The notes below the pieces were generated by a model. It had not been told where the DNA came from and ran no database searches. It was given only the letters and a program-made list of their open reading frames with translations. 64,000 bases of DNA from Spirochaetia bacterium UBA6919 (lineage in GTDB: Bacteria; Spirochaetota; UBA6919), in assembly GCA_002450905.1 (NCBI GenBank), contig DKAT01000049.1, forward strand, positions 11,554-75,553, given 5' to 3'. Numbering within the stretch: position 1 is the stretch's first letter; each line of letters opens with the position of its first letter. The position numbers and the translations under genes are program-made. Of this stretch, positions 3,920 through 61,702 are shown piece after piece.

Positions 3920-4378
3920 TTATATTCCTGGATCAAGATATTTTCTTTCTAATTCTGCAATTTTATCCAATCTTCTCTGGTGTCGACCACCTTCAAATCC
4001 TGTATTTAACCATACTTTTACAATGGAAACTGCGATTTCTGTTCCTATAACACGTTCTCCAAGTGCTAAAATATTTGAATCATTATGGAGTCTTGAGAAA
4101 CGAGCAACGTATTCATTTTCACAACGTGCTGCACGAATTCCTTTAATTTTATTTGCTACTATAGAGGCACCTATTCCAGATCCGCAGATGACAATGCCCC
4201 TATCTGCTTTTTTTTCTGAAACAGCTTTAGCTACAGTAAAGATAAAATCAGGATAATCAACACTTTCAGTAGAGTTTGTCCCATAATCAATATGACTAAC
4301 ACCTTCTTTTGTAAGATATTCGATAATCAATTGTTTTAATTTAAACCCAGCGTGATCAGAGCCAATTGCTATGGTCAT
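3920..4378 (-). CDS. rpiB: Ribose-5-phosphate isomerase B
   Basis: MTIAIGSDHAGFKLK... matches the RpiB/LacAB family N-terminus, and the ~150 aa length fits. There is a GGAAGG ribosome-binding site before the internal Met; the longer ORF-track start is probably an N-terminal extension. Confidence 0.85.
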   Translation of the reverse strand: MTIAIGSDHAGFKLKQLIIEYLTKEGVSHIDYGTNSTESVDYPDFIFTVAKAVSEKKADRGIVICGSGIGASIVANKIKGIRAARCENEYVARFSRLHNDSNILALGERVIGTEIAVSIVKVWLNTGFEGGRHQRRLDKIAELERKYLDPGI

Positions 4379-4573
4379 AGAACCTTCCAGAATATTTAAT
4401 ATTTTGAATAAATTAAACATTTTTTTTAATAGAGTCAAGATAATTTAGCACAGAAGAGAATTCAAGTGTAAATGGAATGGGAAACTAATTATATAAACTG
4501 ATTGTTTAGATTTAAGAACTTGAAATAGTTTTATTTTATGATACGGCCCAAGAAACCGTATCATATATATTAT

Positions 4574-9044: not shown

Positions 9045-9388
9045 TTATAAAACTCCTTAATCAGTGATTATTTTTTATATTGGTATGAGTATAAAATACA
9101 AAATTAACAATTTTTCGATAAAATGAAATTGTTATATATGATAATATAATATATTTCCGATGATTTGATCACATGATTTTTAATATTTTTTGTAAATCTT
9201 CTTTAAAGAACAAGTTAATAATAATTTATATAAAACAAAAAATATTAATTTTATTTTATTAGTAAATGGAATGGTTTCAATTATTTATTTACTATGATAA
9301 TCTAACTTAAGAAAAATTATGATTAACTTAATATAGTTAGGTGTTCATATAATGGTAATCACCAGGAAATTAATTTCGAGAGGTGTTT

Positions 9389-10498
9389 ATGAAAAATATT
9401 GCATTAGTACTCGGTGGTGGTGGAATGAGGGGAATGAGCCACATTGGGGTATTAAAAGCTTTACAGAAGAGGAAAATAAAAATAAGTCAATATATAGGAT
9501 GCAGCATAGGTGCACTTATCAGTAGTTTTGCAGCAAGTGGAATTCCTCCCAAGATGATTGAGAAGTTTGCTAAAAGACTGACTAAAGAAGATATCCTTGA
9601 TTTTCATTGCTTTGACATTTTAAGACGTCGGTTAAAAGTCGGTTGGATTTATCGTGGAGAAAGATTATTAGAGTACCTTAAAAAAAATTTACCTGTTCAT
9701 ACCTTTGATGAATTGACTACCCCACTCTATATTAATTCAATTAATCTGAATTCTGGGAACCTTATTTATTGGGGCTTGCCATCATTCAGAGATGTAACAC
9801 TTGCAGAAGCTGTGTACTCATCCTGTGCATATCCTATAGCATTTAAACCAATTAAAATTAAAGATGAATACTATATTGATGCCGGTATCGTTGATAATCT
9901 CCCTATCAAAGTGACTAGATTTACTAAACCTGATTTGATCATAGCTGTCAATCTCAGATACCGAGGCACATTGGAAGGTAAAAAAATTGAAAATCGCGGC
10001 GTTATTTCCGTAATTGATCAAGTAAATTCTATGATGGGACAAGTTATCTCAGAATATAATTATCAAATTCACCGTGATCTTCATGCCATTTTTATCCATC
10101 CTATAGTTAATCAATATAATTTTCTGGATTTTAGCAATATTCAAGCATTAATTGATGAGGGTGAAAGAGCTACTTATGAAATTTTAGATAAGCATCCTCT
10201 TTTTAGTTCGAAAGATAATGGATTTTCCATCTATGATCTCCTTTTCAAAACAAAACCTATTTTTAATGTTGATCACAATAAATGTACTGGATGTGGAAAT
10301 TGTATCATTCAATGCCCTGCCGATCTTTATAAAATAGATAGTCAGAAAGCTGTATATTTAAAATCTCAGAGAGACAAATGTATTGCGTGTTTAGATTGTA
10401 TCAAACAATGTCCTTATAAGGCTATTTCATTATCTGAAGAGAAACAAACCTTTAGCTTTAGTAATATGCAATACCTTCAAAATATTTTAAGGAAATAA
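9389..10498 (+). CDS. Patatin-like phospholipase fused to a C-terminal 2x[4Fe-4S] ferredoxin domain
   Basis: Patatin oxyanion motif GGGGMRG, nucleophile elbow GCSIG (GxSxG), and a DAG(I)VDN catalytic Asp. The C-terminus has two CxxCxxCxxxCP motifs (CTGCGNCIIQCP and CIACLDCIKQCP). Start taken at the ATG 7 nt after GAGAGG. Confidence 0.75.
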   Translation: MKNIALVLGGGGMRGMSHIGVLKALQKRKIKISQYIGCSIGALISSFAASGIPPKMIEKFAKRLTKEDILDFHCFDILRRRLKVGWIYRGERLLEYLKKNLPVHTFDELTTPLYINSINLNSGNLIYWGLPSFRDVTLAEAVYSSCAYPIAFKPIKIKDEYYIDAGIVDNLPIKVTRFTKPDLIIAVNLRYRGTLEGKKIENRGVISVIDQVNSMMGQVISEYNYQIHRDLHAIFIHPIVNQYNFLDFSNIQALIDEGERATYEILDKHPLFSSKDNGFSIYDLLFKTKPIFNVDHNKCTGCGNCIIQCPADLYKIDSQKAVYLKSQRDKCIACLDCIKQCPYKAISLSEEKQTFSFSNMQYLQNILRK

Positions 10499-49457: not shown

Positions 49458-51206
49458 ATGGATAAAATTCTTGGAATCGATCTAGGTACGACTAATTCAG
49501 TCATGGCGGTTGTTGAAAATGGAAAACCAATTATAATCCATAATAAAAAAGGTGATCGCCTTACCCCTTCTGTTGTTGCATTCACAAAGAATAATGAAAT
49601 TCTGGTAGGAAAACCTGCAAAAAATCAGAGTATACTCAATTCTGAAAAAACTATTTCTTCCGTAAAAAGGAATATGGGGACCACTCAAAAATATCAAATT
49701 GGTAAGAATACATATACCCCTCAGGAGATTTCTGCAAAAATCCTCCATAAAATCAAAGAAGATGCGGAAGATTATTTTGGAACAGAAATTTCAAAAGCAG
49801 TCATCACCGTTCCTGCATATTTTAATGACAATCAAAGACAAGCAACTAAGGAAGCTGGACGTATAGCAGGATTTGATGTTCTGAGAATTATCAATGAGCC
49901 CACAGCCGCCGCCCTCGCTTATGGAATCAATGATCATGAAAACCAGGTAATACTAATCTATGATCTGGGCGGAGGGACATTTGATGTATCCATTCTGGAA
50001 ATAGGGGAGGGGGTGTTTGAAGTCAAAGCGACCACTGGAAATAATCATTTAGGTGGTGATGATTTTGATGCAAAGCTAATGAATTATGTTCTGAAAAAAT
50101 ATAAGGAACAAAACAACATAGATCTAACCAAAGATATCATGGCTTGTCAGAAACTCAAAGAAGAAATTGAAAAAGTCAAAATTGAACTCTCAGAAATAGA
50201 ATCCGTTGATCTGAATATTCCATTTATTTCAGCAGATGAAAAAGGTCCAAGACATTTAAATATAAATATAAACAGGCAATTATTTGAAGAACTGATTCAG
50301 GAATATATCGAAGAAACGATCTATCTCATGGAAAAATGTTTAAAAGATAGCAAATTAGAAAAAAATGATATTGACAAGGTTCTTCTTGTAGGTGGTTCTA
50401 CTCGTATTCCATTGGTTTATAATTCTGTTGAAAAAGCATTATCAAAAAAAATATCAAAAGGGGTCAACCCCGATGAATGTGTAGCACTGGGTGCTGCTAT
50501 ACAGGCTTCGATTTTAAGTGGTGAAAAAAAGGGGATGGTGCTTGTTGATGTTACTCCTCTCTCAATGGGAATAGAAATCGAAGGAGGTGTTTTTGTCCCT
50601 ATAATTGAAAGAAATTCAACGATACCTATTACGAAAAGTAAATTATTTACAACGATATCTGATTATCAGCAAAGTGTTGAAATCCGTGTATATCAGGGTG
50701 AAAGAGTCCGCTGTGTGGATAATATATCCCTGGGTGAATGCCAATTAAAAAATATTAGACCAGCCAAAAAAGGTCTCCCTCGAATTGAAGTAAATTTTGT
50801 CATTGATGTCAATGGGATCTTACAAGTCAGCGCTAAAGATCTAGATAGTGGAAATATGCAGAAAGTAATCATAAAAAATCCCACCAGCCTCTCGGATGAG
50901 AAAATACAAAATATTATTGAAAATGCCAAAAAAAATAAACACACGGATCAGGAAGTATTAAAAATTGAGCAAATAAAACAATTGTTTGATACAAGTTATC
51001 AGCGTTTAAAACTATTATATGAAGATAAAATAAATATAATTGATGCGAATTTAAAGAAGGATATACAGACAGCCCTCAAGAAATCCGAAAAAAAAATTAA
51101 AAGACCAAAATCTGATGAACTGGTTGATTTAATAGATCAAATGGATTTTCTCTACGAAGAATTAAAAATAAGTTATTCCAATGACAGAGAAGGGGTAGAA
51201 GTTTGA
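49458..51206 (+). CDS. Hsp70-family chaperone paralogue (HscC-like), not a canonical DnaK
   Basis: Actin-like NBD motifs (IDLGTTNS, DLGGGTFDVS, a second phosphate motif VGGSTRIP) and an SBD-beta. Lid is short; 582 aa total; C-terminus ...REGVEV. There is no grpE/hrcA context. Confidence 0.85.
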   Translation: MDKILGIDLGTTNSVMAVVENGKPIIIHNKKGDRLTPSVVAFTKNNEILVGKPAKNQSILNSEKTISSVKRNMGTTQKYQIGKNTYTPQEISAKILHKIKEDAEDYFGTEISKAVITVPAYFNDNQRQATKEAGRIAGFDVLRIINEPTAAALAYGINDHENQVILIYDLGGGTFDVSILEIGEGVFEVKATTGNNHLGGDDFDAKLMNYVLKKYKEQNNIDLTKDIMACQKLKEEIEKVKIELSEIESVDLNIPFISADEKGPRHLNININRQLFEELIQEYIEETIYLMEKCLKDSKLEKNDIDKVLLVGGSTRIPLVYNSVEKALSKKISKGVNPDECVALGAAIQASILSGEKKGMVLVDVTPLSMGIEIEGGVFVPIIERNSTIPITKSKLFTTISDYQQSVEIRVYQGERVRCVDNISLGECQLKNIRPAKKGLPRIEVNFVIDVNGILQVSAKDLDSGNMQKVIIKNPTSLSDEKIQNIIENAKKNKHTDQEVLKIEQIKQLFDTSYQRLKLLYEDKINIIDANLKKDIQTALKKSEKKIKRPKSDELVDLIDQMDFLYEELKISYSNDREGVEV

Positions 51207-52078
51207 TGACTAAACATCATGATGAAAATTATTATAAAGTGTTGGGAATTGAGTACCACGCAACGGACAATGATATAAAGAGTGCGTATAGGCGATTAAT
51301 GTTACAATACCATCCTGATGTTTCAAAGGAGCCAGTCCGTGTTGATAACTTTGAGAGGGTAGTCAGAGCTTATAAAGTCCTCAGTGATTCTAAAAAACGG
51401 GCTGAATATAATCGAATAAATAATATTAATGCATTTCGATTTACAAACCATTCATACACTGGATTCAAGGAAACTCATGTCAAGGAATTTCCTGAAGAAA
51501 AACCAATCAAATCAAGTGTATTTAGTTCATTCACAGATCGATTTTTTAATAGGAACCCAGAAGAAAAAATATCAGACGAACTTAATAATGCATTTCACGT
51601 CTCAGATGATATTATAAAACTGGATATAGAAGACCTTATCAATCAATATGAAATCAGTACAAATAAATTTGTCAGGATAGAATCATTAAAAGCTATTGTA
51701 AAAAAATTGGGAAAAATGAGTTATAAAATAATAGAAAATGCCTTAGAGGATACAAGTAAAGAGGTTAGAGAGGTTGCTATTAAGGCAATTGGATTACTAC
51801 AAATCAGACAGGGAATCTATTCCCTTGAAAAGTTATATAAAGAAAGCAGTACGGATGTTAAAAAATCGATAGTAATATCAGTAGCTAACTTGCAATTTCA
51901 AAAAAGTAATGATCTTTTATTGAAGTTTTGTTATGATTACAATGATGATATAAAATTGATAGCTTTAAAGGCAGTTCAGCAATATAAATTAAAAAATGTA
52001 TCGCTATTAAAAGGCTTGCTGCACGATAAAAACCCGTCCATAAAACAGTTAGTCCAAAATATCCTTAAAAATAGCTAA
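51203..52078 (+). CDS. J-domain protein with C-terminal HEAT/PBS-lyase-like repeats (DjlC-like partner of the Hsp70 paralogue)
   Basis: J-domain YYKVLGIEYHATDNDIKSAYRRLMLQYHPD with the HPD tripeptide. There is no G/F or Zn-finger region. C-terminal repeats KEVREVAIKAIGLL and DIKLIALKAVQQY. Start overlaps the Hsp70 stop (ATGA). Confidence 0.8.
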   Translation: MMTKHHDENYYKVLGIEYHATDNDIKSAYRRLMLQYHPDVSKEPVRVDNFERVVRAYKVLSDSKKRAEYNRINNINAFRFTNHSYTGFKETHVKEFPEEKPIKSSVFSSFTDRFFNRNPEEKISDELNNAFHVSDDIIKLDIEDLINQYEISTNKFVRIESLKAIVKKLGKMSYKIIENALEDTSKEVREVAIKAIGLLQIRQGIYSLEKLYKESSTDVKKSIVISVANLQFQKSNDLLLKFCYDYNDDIKLIALKAVQQYKLKNVSLLKGLLHDKNPSIKQLVQNILKNS

Positions 52079-57500: not shown

Positions 57501-58106
57501 TTAGAAGTGTAAAGAGATTTTTAAGGAAAAGAGGTGGGAATAGAATTCGTTTAATTCACTTGATGTTATATAATTTATATGATAAGCTATAGTGAAACTT
57601 AATAATTTAATAAAACGTATTTGTGAGCCGATTTGAAGTGATGAACGCATATAGGGTCCAGGATAGAGAGTCGCTGCTGTTAAGAAACCTGCAAATGGTT
57701 TAATAATTTGGGAATTAAATGGATAGAATAAAAAATTAATTTCTAATCCAGGAAACATCAAAGAAGATTTAGAGGAATCAATAATCAAGTCAGAACTTTT
57801 AATAATACTTATAAATCCACCGATGTTTAAATCAATCTTAGGGGATACAGAAATCCCCAATCCAGTAGAGAAATAGAACTCTCCCCCTTTTTTATGACTC
57901 ATTTCATAAAAGTATCCACCATTTAAATATATAGAATAGCTAGTCTCAATTTTTTCTTTTTTGACAGAATCAAGGGATAATTCTTTATTATCTTTATTTC
58001 TTTCTTGTCCAAAAAATAGCTGGGGAAATAAATTTAAACATAAAATGAATATCCCAATAATAATTCTATTTTTTTGTTTTCTTCCGCCCAAGGGGAAGTA
58101 CCTCAT
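57501..58106 (-). CDS. Small outer-membrane beta-barrel-like protein (hypothetical)
   Basis: Signal-like hydrophobic leader, alternating hydrophobic/polar beta-strand pattern, and a C-terminal aromatic residue (...LKISLHF) typical of OMPs. The annotated start overlaps the BMC-H gene, so the true start is probably later. Confidence 0.4.
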
Positions 58107-58368
58107 CGACGTTATTGTGTGGTCTTGGGATTATGTGTACTGATATTATTTCCCCAACACGTTCTGCAGCTTTACTACCTGCTTCAGTTGCAGCTTTGAC
58201 AGCAGCCACATCGCCCCTAATAATAGTGGTAACATATCCTCCACCCGTTTTTTCATAACCAATTAATTCAACTTTTGCGGCTTTGACCATAGCATCACTT
58301 GCTTCAACCATTGCAGCAAAACCTCTTGTTTCAATCATACCCAAGGCATCTGAAAATACTTCTGCCAT
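58066..58368 (-). CDS. Bacterial microcompartment shell protein, BMC-H (PduA/EutM/CcmK family)
   Basis: Near-consensus BMC domain: [57 protein letters not shown]...VHIIPRPH. Confidence 0.88.
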
Positions 58369-58436
58369 ATATACCTCATTTTTAATTCATTATAACTTTT
58401 AATCACAATTGATTTATTTTTTTAAATAAGTTGATA

Positions 58437-58832
58437 CTATTTTCCAAGTATTTTTAAAGCTTTTTTAATTGTAAAGATAACATGCTCATCTTCTTCTATT
58501 TTTAATCGATTTTGGAGAGGATTAAGAGCTTTTGAATCACCAATTTTACCAAGAGCTTCTGCTGAATAAAGACGAACTGACCACTCGGGATCATTTAGAG
58601 TCTTAATAAGAGAGTCCACCGCATTTTTACTTTTCAATCTACCAAGAGATTGTGCTGCTTGTGCCCTTATATAGCCACTTTTACTCTTGTTCAGAGCTTG
58701 TATTAAATATTCCTCATCTTTTTTATTTTCATGTTCACGAATTTGGTCAAATCGATAAGTTGTACAAGAAAAAAGAAATAAGAGAATAGTTAAAATTTTA
58801 AATAAATTGTAATGACTTAAATTGGTTATCAT
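58437..58832 (-). CDS. HEAT/PBS-lyase-repeat lipoprotein
   Basis: Lipobox-like LFSC leader. Repeats IRAQAAQSLGRLKSKNAVDSLIKTLNDPEWSVRLYSAEALGKIGDSKA are the HEAT_2/PBS lyase pattern. Confidence 0.55.
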   Translation of the reverse strand: MITNLSHYNLFKILTILLFLFSCTTYRFDQIREHENKKDEEYLIQALNKSKSGYIRAQAAQSLGRLKSKNAVDSLIKTLNDPEWSVRLYSAEALGKIGDSKALNPLQNRLKIEEDEHVIFTIKKALKILGK

Positions 58833-59062
58833 TTTATATCTTTGTCAACAGAAAATTAAAATATGAAAAATATCAATTTTTACACAGAAAACAAGTATTT
58901 TTTTATATCGATATAGAATATTTATAAATTATCGTATATACTCTATTGAAATCTAAATATAAATTGAATAATAGATATCTTTATAAATTTACAAAAATAC
59001 TTTCATTTTTTATTTGTATTATTATATTATCCTTAGAAAATAACAGGATATGGAGGTTGTCT

Positions 59063-60349: not shown

Positions 60350-61702
60350 TTATCTTAAAAGTTTGGAAAGATCTTTTCCAGAGATTAAATTAATTGGTCG
60401 GGCTTCTGCAAAATCGATAGCTTGATTTGAAAAACCAGTTGCGGAAATACAAATTGCTTTATGGAGCCCACTTTCCTGCTTTAATTGCTCAGCGATTTCT
60501 CTTACAATTCTATCTCCTAGTGGTTCATTCTGGCGATATACCCTAACTAATAATTTTTGGACTCTAATATCATTTATACCGAGTTTTTCCAGAACAATGA
60601 ATACAGCTAATACACTTCCTACTGAGACCACCTCAACAACTTCTAAACCTAATTTCATCAGTACTTTTCTGCAGAGTTCTTCAAAAGCGGGATTAGAAGC
60701 TACAAAAAAATCTTTTAAAGTATCTTCCATTCTTAAATCAGAATAATTTGCCAGCTTTTCATTGACATCCCTAAAATTTGGTTGACTTGCAATAATTTTT
60801 TCCCACTGCTCAATTGCTGCTGCTATATTTTTCTCTTGTTCATAGGCATTTGCCAGATAATAACGGATATTTCGGGCAATATTATCTTCTTCTTTTATAA
60901 GCGCGACAGCTTTATCGAATTCAACAATAGCTTGTGCCAGATTTCCTAATTCATTTAATATTATACCTTTTTGATACAAAGATCGAAGCCTGTATTCTTT
61001 CTCACGGGAAGCTATATCAAATTGCTGAAGAGCTTTTTGATAGTTTTTAACCTGGAAATTGACCATTCCAATATAGAAATTAGCTTTGTAATAATACTTA
61101 TCAAGATTGATACACTTTTCCAGATCATGAAGAGCTTCACTGTTTAATTTAAGATGGTATTTTGCTATTCCTGAATAGAAGAGTGAATCAATATGATTTG
61201 GATTAATTTCTAATGCTTTTTTGAGGAAATGGGCTGCTTGTTCGTATCGTTCTTTTTCGATATAAATTCTACCGATTTCTGAATAACTTTTATAATTTTC
61301 TGGATCAATTTGGACGATGAGGAGAAATTCTTTTTGAGCTTCTTCTAATTGCTGGATATGAAGAAATATTTCAGCAAGTCTAAGTCGAGTCATGGTTTCA
61401 GAAATGTTTTTTGTATATTTATTGAGACGTAAGACTTTTTTGTATTCAGGTAATGCCCATTCATAATTATCTGAGAGGTAGTAAGATTCTGCAAGATAGA
61501 AATGAGCTTCTGAGTTGGAGTCATCTTTTGCAATAAGGGTTTTTAAGATTTCTATGGATTTTGAATAATCTTTTATTTTAATCAACTTGACAGCATTATC
61601 AATACGGCTTGATGTACTTGATCCTTTCAGTAAATAGACTACTAGAGCGATGATTCCAAGTGTCAATATTATTATTATTACAATAAATAAGGGATTATCC
61701 AT
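60350..61702 (-). CDS. Membrane-anchored TPR-repeat protein with a C-terminal Mrr-cat-like (restriction-endonuclease fold) domain
   Basis: N-terminal TM (LFIVIIIILTLGIIALVVYLL), about 8 TPR-like repeats (AHFYLAESYY..., YSEIGRIYIEKERYEQAAHFLKKALEINP...), and a C-terminus ...IRVQKLLVRVY...ATGFSNQAIDFAEARPINLISGKDLSKLL that resembles the Mrr_cat terminal motif. Confidence 0.55.
   Translation of the reverse strand: MDNPLFIVIIIILTLGIIALVVYLLKGSSTSSRIDNAVKLIKIKDYSKSIEILKTLIAKDDSNSEAHFYLAESYYLSDNYEWALPEYKKVLRLNKYTKNISETMTRLRLAEIFLHIQQLEEAQKEFLLIVQIDPENYKSYSEIGRIYIEKERYEQAAHFLKKALEINPNHIDSLFYSGIAKYHLKLNSEALHDLEKCINLDKYYYKANFYIGMVNFQVKNYQKALQQFDIASREKEYRLRSLYQKGIILNELGNLAQAIVEFDKAVALIKEEDNIARNIRYYLANAYEQEKNIAAAIEQWEKIIASQPNFRDVNEKLANYSDLRMEDTLKDFFVASNPAFEELCRKVLMKLGLEVVEVVSVGSVLAVFIVLEKLGINDIRVQKLLVRVYRQNEPLGDRIVREIAEQLKQESGLHKAICISATGFSNQAIDFAEARPINLISGKDLSKLLR

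Follow-up and report, generated by a model that had tools for sequence, protein, structure and literature searches.

The stretch of DNA analysed here, referred to as the window, comprises 64,000 nucleotides of a contig from the Spirochaetia bacterium UBA6919 (DKAT01000049.1, positions 11,554 to 75,553). Three open reading frames (ORFs) on its minus strand occupy 58832..57501. They encode a putative lipoprotein with HEAT repeats, a hexameric shell protein of bacterial microcompartments (BMC-H) and a small outer-membrane beta-barrel, here named OMP1. A promoter-like element precedes them. In the direction of transcription the features are:

58865..58906, minus strand: conserved promoter-like element, about 35 nt 5' of the HEAT start

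58437..58832, minus strand: predicted HEAT-repeat lipoprotein, 131 aa, with signal peptide, lipobox Cys23 and three HEAT-like helical hairpins (Pfam HEAT_2)

58066..58368, minus strand: BMC-H, hexameric shell protein, 100 aa (PF00936, edge and pore motifs)

57501..58106, minus strand: OMP1, small 8-stranded outer-membrane beta-barrel, with its start inside the 3' end of the BMC-H gene (alternative start TTG 58091)

This trio is a reduced copy of an operon conserved in uncultured Spirochaetia, present on at least eight distinct contigs from metagenome-assembled genomes (MAGs) and metagenomes and hereafter called the cassette. Its order is promoter-like element, HEAT lipoprotein, usually a BMC-T shell protein, BMC-H, the overlapping barrel and, in many copies, one or two further barrels. 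The cassette loci were obtained by following the closest BMC-H homologues (86–91% identity) to their contigs:

L003, 162-kb contig of the Spirochaetota MAG CBDBPB01: HEAT, 206-aa BMC-T, BMC-H, overlapping barrel and two further barrels

L005, GCA_054033435.1: HEAT, BMC-T, BMC-H, overlapping barrel and one further barrel

L012, GCA_054033495.1: HEAT, BMC-T, BMC-H, overlapping barrel and one further barrel

L015, ENA metagenome assembly ERZ27296335: HEAT, BMC-T, BMC-H, overlapping barrel and two further barrels

L019, ENA metagenome assembly ERZ27296366: HEAT, BMC-T and BMC-H, followed by the contig end

L006 and L008, uncultured Spirochaetia from marine sediment: HEAT and BMC-T, with the contig ending at the BMC-H position

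L014, GCA_024449685.1: HEAT, no BMC-T (410-bp gap), BMC-H and the overlapping barrel only

The original prediction, made from the sequence of the window, had described the shell gene as an orphan. This holds in so far as no BMC locus is present in the 64 kb, but the term is misleading, for the gene belongs to a conserved operon that ancestrally contained a BMC-T of the dp type. The 206-aa protein of the cassettes matches HO-5816, CcmP and CsoS1D with E values from 1e-70 to 4e-50 and is therefore assigned to BMC-T(dp), the double-stacking trimer type. Window and L014 are without BMC-T and without the additional barrels, and tblastn detected no BMC-T remnant in the gap between HEAT and BMC-H of either (68 nt in the window, 410 nt in L014). 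Since L014 is syntenic upstream with the BMC-T-bearing L019 (flagellin and a pterin-binding protein), and since the nearest contig-traced relative of the window BMC-H, P0003 (90% identity; P0001 and P0002 are closer with 91%), lies in L019 next to a BMC-T, the two losses of BMC-T were independent. Both reductions converge on the same trio of HEAT, BMC-H and OMP1. The neighbourhood of the cassette differs from contig to contig, whereas gene order, overlap and promoter-like element are kept. The assemblies that bear the cassette also include CAJXGR01 and GCA_036245015.1; GCA_024449685.1 (JAANST01), the source of L014, is by its contig numbering apparently a metagenome assembly.

Some details of the surroundings recur. 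A gene for a ThiI-like tRNA sulfurtransferase follows directly after the last barrel in L005, L012, L014 and L015, though not in the window or L003, and in three of those four loci ThiC is found two genes past it. A metallo-beta-lactamase gene beside the window cassette, also encountered near the cassettes of L006 and L012, was rejected as a cassette member (27% identity, not orthologous). The 410-bp non-coding gap at the BMC-T position of L014 (9591-10000) contains two long GC-rich inverted repeats (e.g. GGACGAACACATAGGTTCGCC...GGCGAACCTATGTGTTCGTCC), which look like a miniature inverted-repeat transposable element or another repeat element.

The window BMC-H consists of a single PF00936 domain (Pfam BMC; E = 1.3e-30, residues 8-83 of 100), corresponding to the pattern of one such domain in about 90-110 residues. 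This match excludes a non-BMC fold, which had been named as a possible refutation, and the earlier description of 58066-58368 as a textbook BMC-domain hexamer shell protein is borne out by it and by the motifs. The NCBIfam model EutM gives it 132.4 bits, 0.6 short of the equivalog threshold of 133. Among solved structures the best natural match is HO-5815 from Haliangium ochraceum (HO; 5DJB, 5V74) with E = 2.9e-45 and 79% identity. A residue-by-residue alignment revealed the same edge motifs in both proteins, K29-A-A-K32 (KAAK) and P81-R-P-H84 (PRPH), the same pore loop, K40-T-G-G-G-Y45 (KTGGGY), and an identical C-terminal LPLGR. KAAK and PRPH are the standard motifs of the interface between hexamers (Sutter et al. 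2021, catalogue supplement, PMC8217296). The C-terminal tail is rich in Lys. A GAGGT Shine-Dalgarno sequence is located 4 nt 5' of the ATG, and neither BMC-H nor the BMC-T of the cassettes carries a signal peptide. The BMC-H sequence is identical across independent assemblies and shares 84-91% identity with its cassette orthologues. Judged from its sequence, the window BMC-H is a functional, canonical hexameric shell tile with every hexamer-hexamer tiling motif of the HO shell. The 79% identity to a protein of a solved shell suggests that it would form hexamers and tile into sheets or shells.

The divergence between cassettes points in the same direction. GC content varies from 30 to 46% among their host lineages, whose synonymous sites are saturated in comparisons with one another. 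Nonsynonymous divergence (dN) of the shell genes is nevertheless small: 0.06-0.10 for BMC-H (84-95% protein identity) and 0.08-0.14 for BMC-T (81-99%). For HEAT it amounts to 0.39-0.57 (41-59% identity between lineages) and for OMP1 to 0.46-0.70 (30-51%). Where the ratio to synonymous divergence (dN/dS) could be computed, it is about 0.02-0.07 for BMC-H. By these substitution patterns, very strong purifying selection acts on the shell genes. They are functional, and constrained to the same degree as their counterparts in complete loci.

Upstream of the shell gene, the product of the first gene was assigned to the HEAT repeats by Pfam (HEAT_2 8.9e-18, HEAT_PBS 7.4e-11). Its N-terminus is a hydrophobic segment closing on Cys23, a residue that is invariant among the orthologues (n=8), as is the subsequent motif xxY/H-RFD in 8 orthologues. 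The lipobox itself varies (F-S-C, L-G-C, L-S-C, I-S-C or S-A-C). With a signal peptide and a lipobox Cys the protein has the marks of a bacterial lipoprotein, and acylation is predicted; the lipobox HEAT-repeat protein suspected at this place was thus correctly recognized. An AlphaFold2 model (pLDDT 90) presents an all-helical scaffold of three repeats, for which Foldseek returned only generic alphaRep/HEAT scaffolds and binders. Close relatives are scarce. About 8 clusters were found among 5.8 billion proteins, with NCBI names Spirochaetota or Spirochaetes, and a search with the HEAT alignment yielded 2 loci in GTDB genomes and 2 in JGI metagenomes, which indicates rarity. The next-nearest homologue has 43% identity and an unrelated gene context, the contig of the more distant homologue P0143 contains no BMC gene, and the homologue searches retrieved no HEAT/barrel operon without BMC genes.

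The promoter-like element in front of the HEAT gene comprises an A-tract, a -35-like TTGTTT (58894-58889), a 16-nt spacer and a -10-like TATTTT (58872-58867), with a TG one base ahead of the latter hexamer. Its consensus is A7-8 CTTGTTTT N7 AAAA N2 G N2 TATTTTT. It is found 5' of HEAT in all cassette loci with upstream sequence, namely the window, L003 (with a 1-nt deletion), L005, L006, L009, L012, L014 and L019. The window contains one copy compared with 0.09 expected, and there is no comparable match elsewhere in the 293 kb of fetched loci, which include three SPU2 loci (sugar-phosphate utilisation type, see below). The element reads like an A-tract UP element followed by a weak -35 and, after the 16-nt spacer, by an extended -10, and a role as promoter or operator is probable. 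Neither riboswitches nor other known RNAs were detected near the cassettes by an Rfam scan, and no intrinsic terminators were found around the operon. The conserved element, the tight spacing and the gene overlap argue for one transcription unit under conserved control. Within the window, a weak copy of the element pattern with 4 mismatches is located at 20798-20768 (-), 5' of a gene for a DUF6866 protein (19647-20705 (-), N domain 9e-53, C domain 3e-28), which is divergent to the flagellar operon described below.

OMP1 starts with a signal peptide (residues ~8-34) and a linker rich in Lys, Glu and Ser, which contains the conserved motif L-x-L-x-S-V-K. The barrel spans residues 57-200 and ends with a C-terminal Phe. 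Signal peptide, eight antiparallel strands and C-terminal aromatic residue are those of an 8-stranded outer-membrane barrel. In a Pfam scan the window OMP1 had no match, PF13505 (OMP_b-brl) included. When 1.84 billion representatives were searched exhaustively with phmmer, only 6 clusters were obtained at E<1e-10, and a genome scan with the OMP1 alignment gave no confirmed relative. OMP1 is thus a new, very small barrel family confined to the cassette. To NspA, the N-domain of OmpA/OprF, PagL and OmpW its identity is only 8-12%, and unlike these small barrels it has a conserved N-terminal linker motif and is restricted to the cassette. Of the second and third barrels in L003 and L015, four of which were scanned against PF13505 (cut-off 28.7), the one at 11950-12528 in L003 passes with 35.3 bits; the remaining three reach 19.8-27.0 bits. 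The OMP1 orthologue of L003 (10257-11060) has an insertion of about 70 aa between signal peptide and barrel, made up of two near-identical repeats rich in Lys, Asp and Asn (KDKAKNENSNKLKLDTLKTKKSKDD). P0127, a protein of 3281 aa from the representative library, matches OMP1 residues 58-109 at seven separate places (E = 2.3e-10). Possibly this giant protein is assembled from recurring hairpins akin to the first strands of the barrel.

The overlap of an OMP-like barrel gene with the shell gene, as noticed before, amounts to 41 nt if the barrel starts at ATG 58106 and to 26 nt if it starts at the in-frame TTG 58091, which has a GAGGT 8 nt upstream. The barrel ATG 58106 and this GAGGT (58106-58089, -) arise where the conserved BMC-H codons for VDEVLPLGR are read in the +1 frame. 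Since these codons are conserved, the similar N-termini of the barrels (MRYFPL, MRYCPL, MRFSPL) are a by-product, and TTG 58091 may be the true start. An overlap with BMC-H is retained in all cassettes. As both candidate starts overlap BMC-H, translational coupling is plausible.

To look for the remainder of a microcompartment, the six-frame translation of all 64 kb was searched by phmmer with BMC-H and with queries from the complete locus L010: BMC-T, four BMC-P (vertex proteins), BMC-T(s), aldehyde dehydrogenase (AldDh), PduS-like protein, DeoC, RpiB and class II aldolase. Besides 58368..58066 no BMC ORF was found in the 64 kb, and no BMC-P, DeoC or AldDh. The absence of a microcompartment locus, stated earlier for +/-6 kb, thus extends to the entire window. 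The sole other match was an RpiB (3920-4438) at a distance of 54 kb from the cassette. This housekeeping gene adjoins shikimate dehydrogenase; translated from the probable start MTIAIGSDHAGF, its product is without an N-terminal extension. A main BMC locus as defined by Sutter et al. 2021 is accordingly absent: no BMC-P occurs in the window, nor in the 10 kb around any of seven cassette loci, while the positive controls L010 and L017 each returned 4 BMC-P. The enzyme set of SPU2 (DeoC-type pfam01791, RpiB-type pfam02502 and an AldDh bearing an encapsulation peptide, all beside the shell genes) is likewise missing from the window. Pfam scans of nearly all large ORFs of the window revealed housekeeping genes, a two-component system and a flagellar operon of 27 kb (flgB to fapA).

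Outside the cassette, the nearest relatives of its shell proteins belong to SPU2-type compartments. The BMC-H proteins P0012, P0011 and P0107 (82-84% identity to the window BMC-H) each head a complete SPU2-type locus (L010, L017 and L022), arranged as DeoR regulator, BMC-T(dp), BMC-H, two BMC-P, a PduS-like protein in some cases, BMC-T(s), AldDh, two BMC-P, RpiB and DeoC. The SPU2 locus with P0107 is in a different assembly from L003. The BMC-T proteins of these loci are the nearest relatives of the cassette BMC-T (61-69%), and the order of T before H at the head of the locus is the same. SPU2 loci are found mostly in Bacteroidetes and Spirochaetes (Sutter et al. 2021, PMC8217296, Supplementary Data 2). 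In contrast to them, the cassette lacks BMC-P, AldDh, a DeoC-type aldolase, an RpiB of the compartment type and BMC-T(s). Furthermore, SPU2 BMC-H proteins contain VRAALDAGSR, whereas the cassette BMC-H instead keeps a 10-residue signature shared with HO-5815 and PduA. In the comparison of shell types the window BMC-H is 82-84% identical to SPU2 and 79% to HO, with its signature shared with HO and PduA rather than with SPU2. HO-5815 comes from a main locus that also encodes three BMC-T and three BMC-P; the window gene, in contrast, is alone in 64 kb and overlaps a barrel gene.

Dispersed shell genes as such are well documented. Both satellite shell loci and accessory genes for transport are established features of BMC loci (PMC8217296), a satellite locus being one that lies apart from the main locus of the same genome and holds shell genes with or without enzymes (Sutter et al. 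2021, PMC8217296). The satellites CcmK3/CcmK4 of beta-carboxysomes are thought to permit separate regulation of shell composition (PMC8217296; see also PMC5853843). The cassette would resemble them in the position of its shell genes away from the main locus, if such a locus exists; they differ in that the shell genes of CcmK3/CcmK4-type satellites occur alone or with enzymes, and none is described that shares an operon and overlaps with lipoprotein or outer-membrane genes. In the FRAG types, known mainly from Ignavibacteriae, Gemmatimonadetes, Planctomycetes and candidate phyla, shell genes are spread over up to six genomic places, often far from any enzyme (PMC8217296). Dispersed shell genes are common to FRAG and cassette, but a BMC-P triplet belongs to the definition of the FRAG types, and no BMC-P is known from the cassette genomes. 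The literature consulted, including the 2021 catalogue and its supplements, mentions neither shell genes paired with HEAT lipoproteins or outer-membrane barrels nor relevant orphan shell genes. The pairing of shell and envelope genes in one operon is thus previously undescribed.

We favour, with confidence about evenly balanced between yes and no, the interpretation that the window carries a functional shell-tile gene for a compartment, probably an SPU2-like one, whose own locus lies elsewhere in the genome, and that this gene is co-expressed with an envelope module. BMC-H would be made in the cytoplasm and would tile into the shell of a compartment whose vertex proteins and enzymes are encoded at another place. 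The cassette would then be a satellite-like distal shell module. Its promoter would drive the shell gene along with the genes of the exported HEAT lipoprotein and the barrel, and translation of the barrel would be coupled to that of BMC-H via the overlap. The envelope pair would act beyond the inner membrane, probably as a complex of barrel and lipoprotein, in which the HEAT groove may bind the conserved L-x-L-x-S-V-K linker at the N-terminus of the barrel. Such a complex may handle outer-membrane passage or sensing of the substrate of the compartment, so that the cell would activate access through the envelope and shell capacity at the same time. Since the shell proteins have no signal peptides and HEAT and barrels are exported, the link would presumably be co-expression only and not contact.

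Several points weigh against this interpretation. A main locus is adjacent in no instance of the cassette, neither in the 64-kb window nor in the up to 10 kb around seven loci. The location of HEAT and barrels outside the cytoplasm and of BMC-H and BMC-T in the cytosol excludes direct contact and leaves co-regulation. The two independent reductions to HEAT/BMC-H/OMP1 fit a tighter link between BMC-H and the envelope than that of a mere satellite. Barrels with 8 strands are often structural rather than channels. A quick neighbour-joining tree of 120 BMC-H had too little signal and resolved no cassette clade. Finally, the catalogue describes SPU2 as a type without satellite loci (Sutter et al. 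2021, PMC8217296, Supplementary Data 2).

The last point, together with the retention of the same trio in both reductions, would rather suit a stand-alone system without vertex proteins or BMC cargo, in which BMC-H, with BMC-T where present, forms a pentamer-free sheet, a tube or an open "wiffle-ball" shell tied to the envelope. We consider this unlikely. It is consistent with the lack of BMC-P or enzymes beside the cassette in any of seven loci, with the cassette's own conserved promoter-like element, with the maintenance of gene order and BMC-H/OMP1 overlap across very deep divergence, and with the confinement of the OMP1 family to the cassette context (the 6 clusters in 1.84 billion representatives). 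Moreover, shells of the HO system made of H and T proteins assemble in vitro without pentamers. Against it, no physical route leads from cytosolic shell proteins to partners in the periplasm or outer membrane, the motifs of BMC-H are indistinguishable from those of closed-shell tiles, and SPU2 loci exist in Spirochaetota, which makes a main locus in the same genome plausible; to our knowledge, no natural function of shell proteins outside compartments is established. The corresponding general statement, that in a clade of uncultured spirochaetes BMC-H (joined by BMC-T(dp) in most lineages) is used with neither vertex proteins nor an encapsulated pathway, as an open shell or a cytoplasmic lattice free of pentamers, and that one promoter and overlapping genes firmly tie its production to a dedicated lipoprotein/barrel module, appears unlikely to us.

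A BMC-T/BMC-H pair may also have been inserted once into an ancestral HEAT/barrel operon, serving a distant compartment while its neighbours are unrelated to it. The separation of shell and envelope proteins into different cell compartments suits such hitch-hiking, as do the loss of BMC-T with retention of the rest and the roughly 6-fold slower evolution of the shell genes compared with their neighbours, which unrelated constraints predict. We nevertheless rate it as unlikely: the flanks are scrambled in every lineage while the cassette is intact in order, overlap and promoter, and no HEAT/barrel operon devoid of BMC genes was found, the next HEAT homologue (43%) being in an unrelated context. 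By far the least probable is that the ORF was wrongly called or is the decaying residue of a microcompartment locus since lost. A single BMC gene in 64 kb and the missing BMC-T of the window might suggest decay, but the ORF is intact with a good Shine-Dalgarno sequence, all functional motifs are kept, the sequence is identical in independent assemblies, and dN/dS against the orthologues is about 0.03-0.07 at saturated synonymous divergence. Because of this selection analysis, the remnant explanation is effectively refuted.

Shell-protein genes are the markers by which microcompartments are found and classified. In the cassette, two of them share a fixed operon with genes for exported envelope proteins, and this arrangement holds over deep divergence among spirochaetes. 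Should there be a main locus, as the favoured interpretation requires, the cassette would be a novel type of satellite in which shell composition is coupled to the cell envelope, and it would provide a lead to what the hosts feed into their compartments. If there is no main locus, it would represent a natural pentamer-free use of shell proteins, of interest to cell biologists and to engineers of synthetic shells; a stand-alone system, if true, would be the first natural recruitment of BMC shell proteins to a non-metabolosome, envelope-linked function. In either case the cassette defines a new family of small outer-membrane barrels and a conserved promoter-like element that could be used to find the regulon.

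Other parts of the window deserve mention. The flagellar operon at 20898-48485 (+) contains flgB, flgC, fliF, fliH, fliI, fliJ, SLT, fliK, flgD, flgE, motA, motB, fliL, fliM, fliN/Y, fliO, fliP, fliR, flhB, flhA, flhF, flhG, sigma-28 and fapA. Such a single 27-kb flagellar operon is consistent with the origin of the DNA from a spirochaete. At 49458-52078 (+) a gene for an Hsp70/DnaK-like protein (582 aa) is followed, with a 4-nt overlap, by a gene for a J-domain protein (291 aa; DnaJ 3e-21), whose C-terminal half consists of HEAT repeats (HEAT_2 7e-9). This DnaK/DnaJ pair with a HEAT adaptor is non-canonical and unrelated in sequence to the HEAT protein of the cassette. Two genes from the cassette, 60350-61702 (-) encodes a protein of 450 aa with an N-terminal membrane helix, about eight tetratricopeptide repeats and, at the C-terminus, a restriction-endonuclease-like Mrr_cat domain (2.4e-11). 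Finally, an unusual architecture is present at 9383-10498 (+), where a patatin-like phospholipase (Patatin 1.6e-36) is fused to a C-terminal 4Fe-4S dicluster ferredoxin (Fer4_7 1.5e-10).

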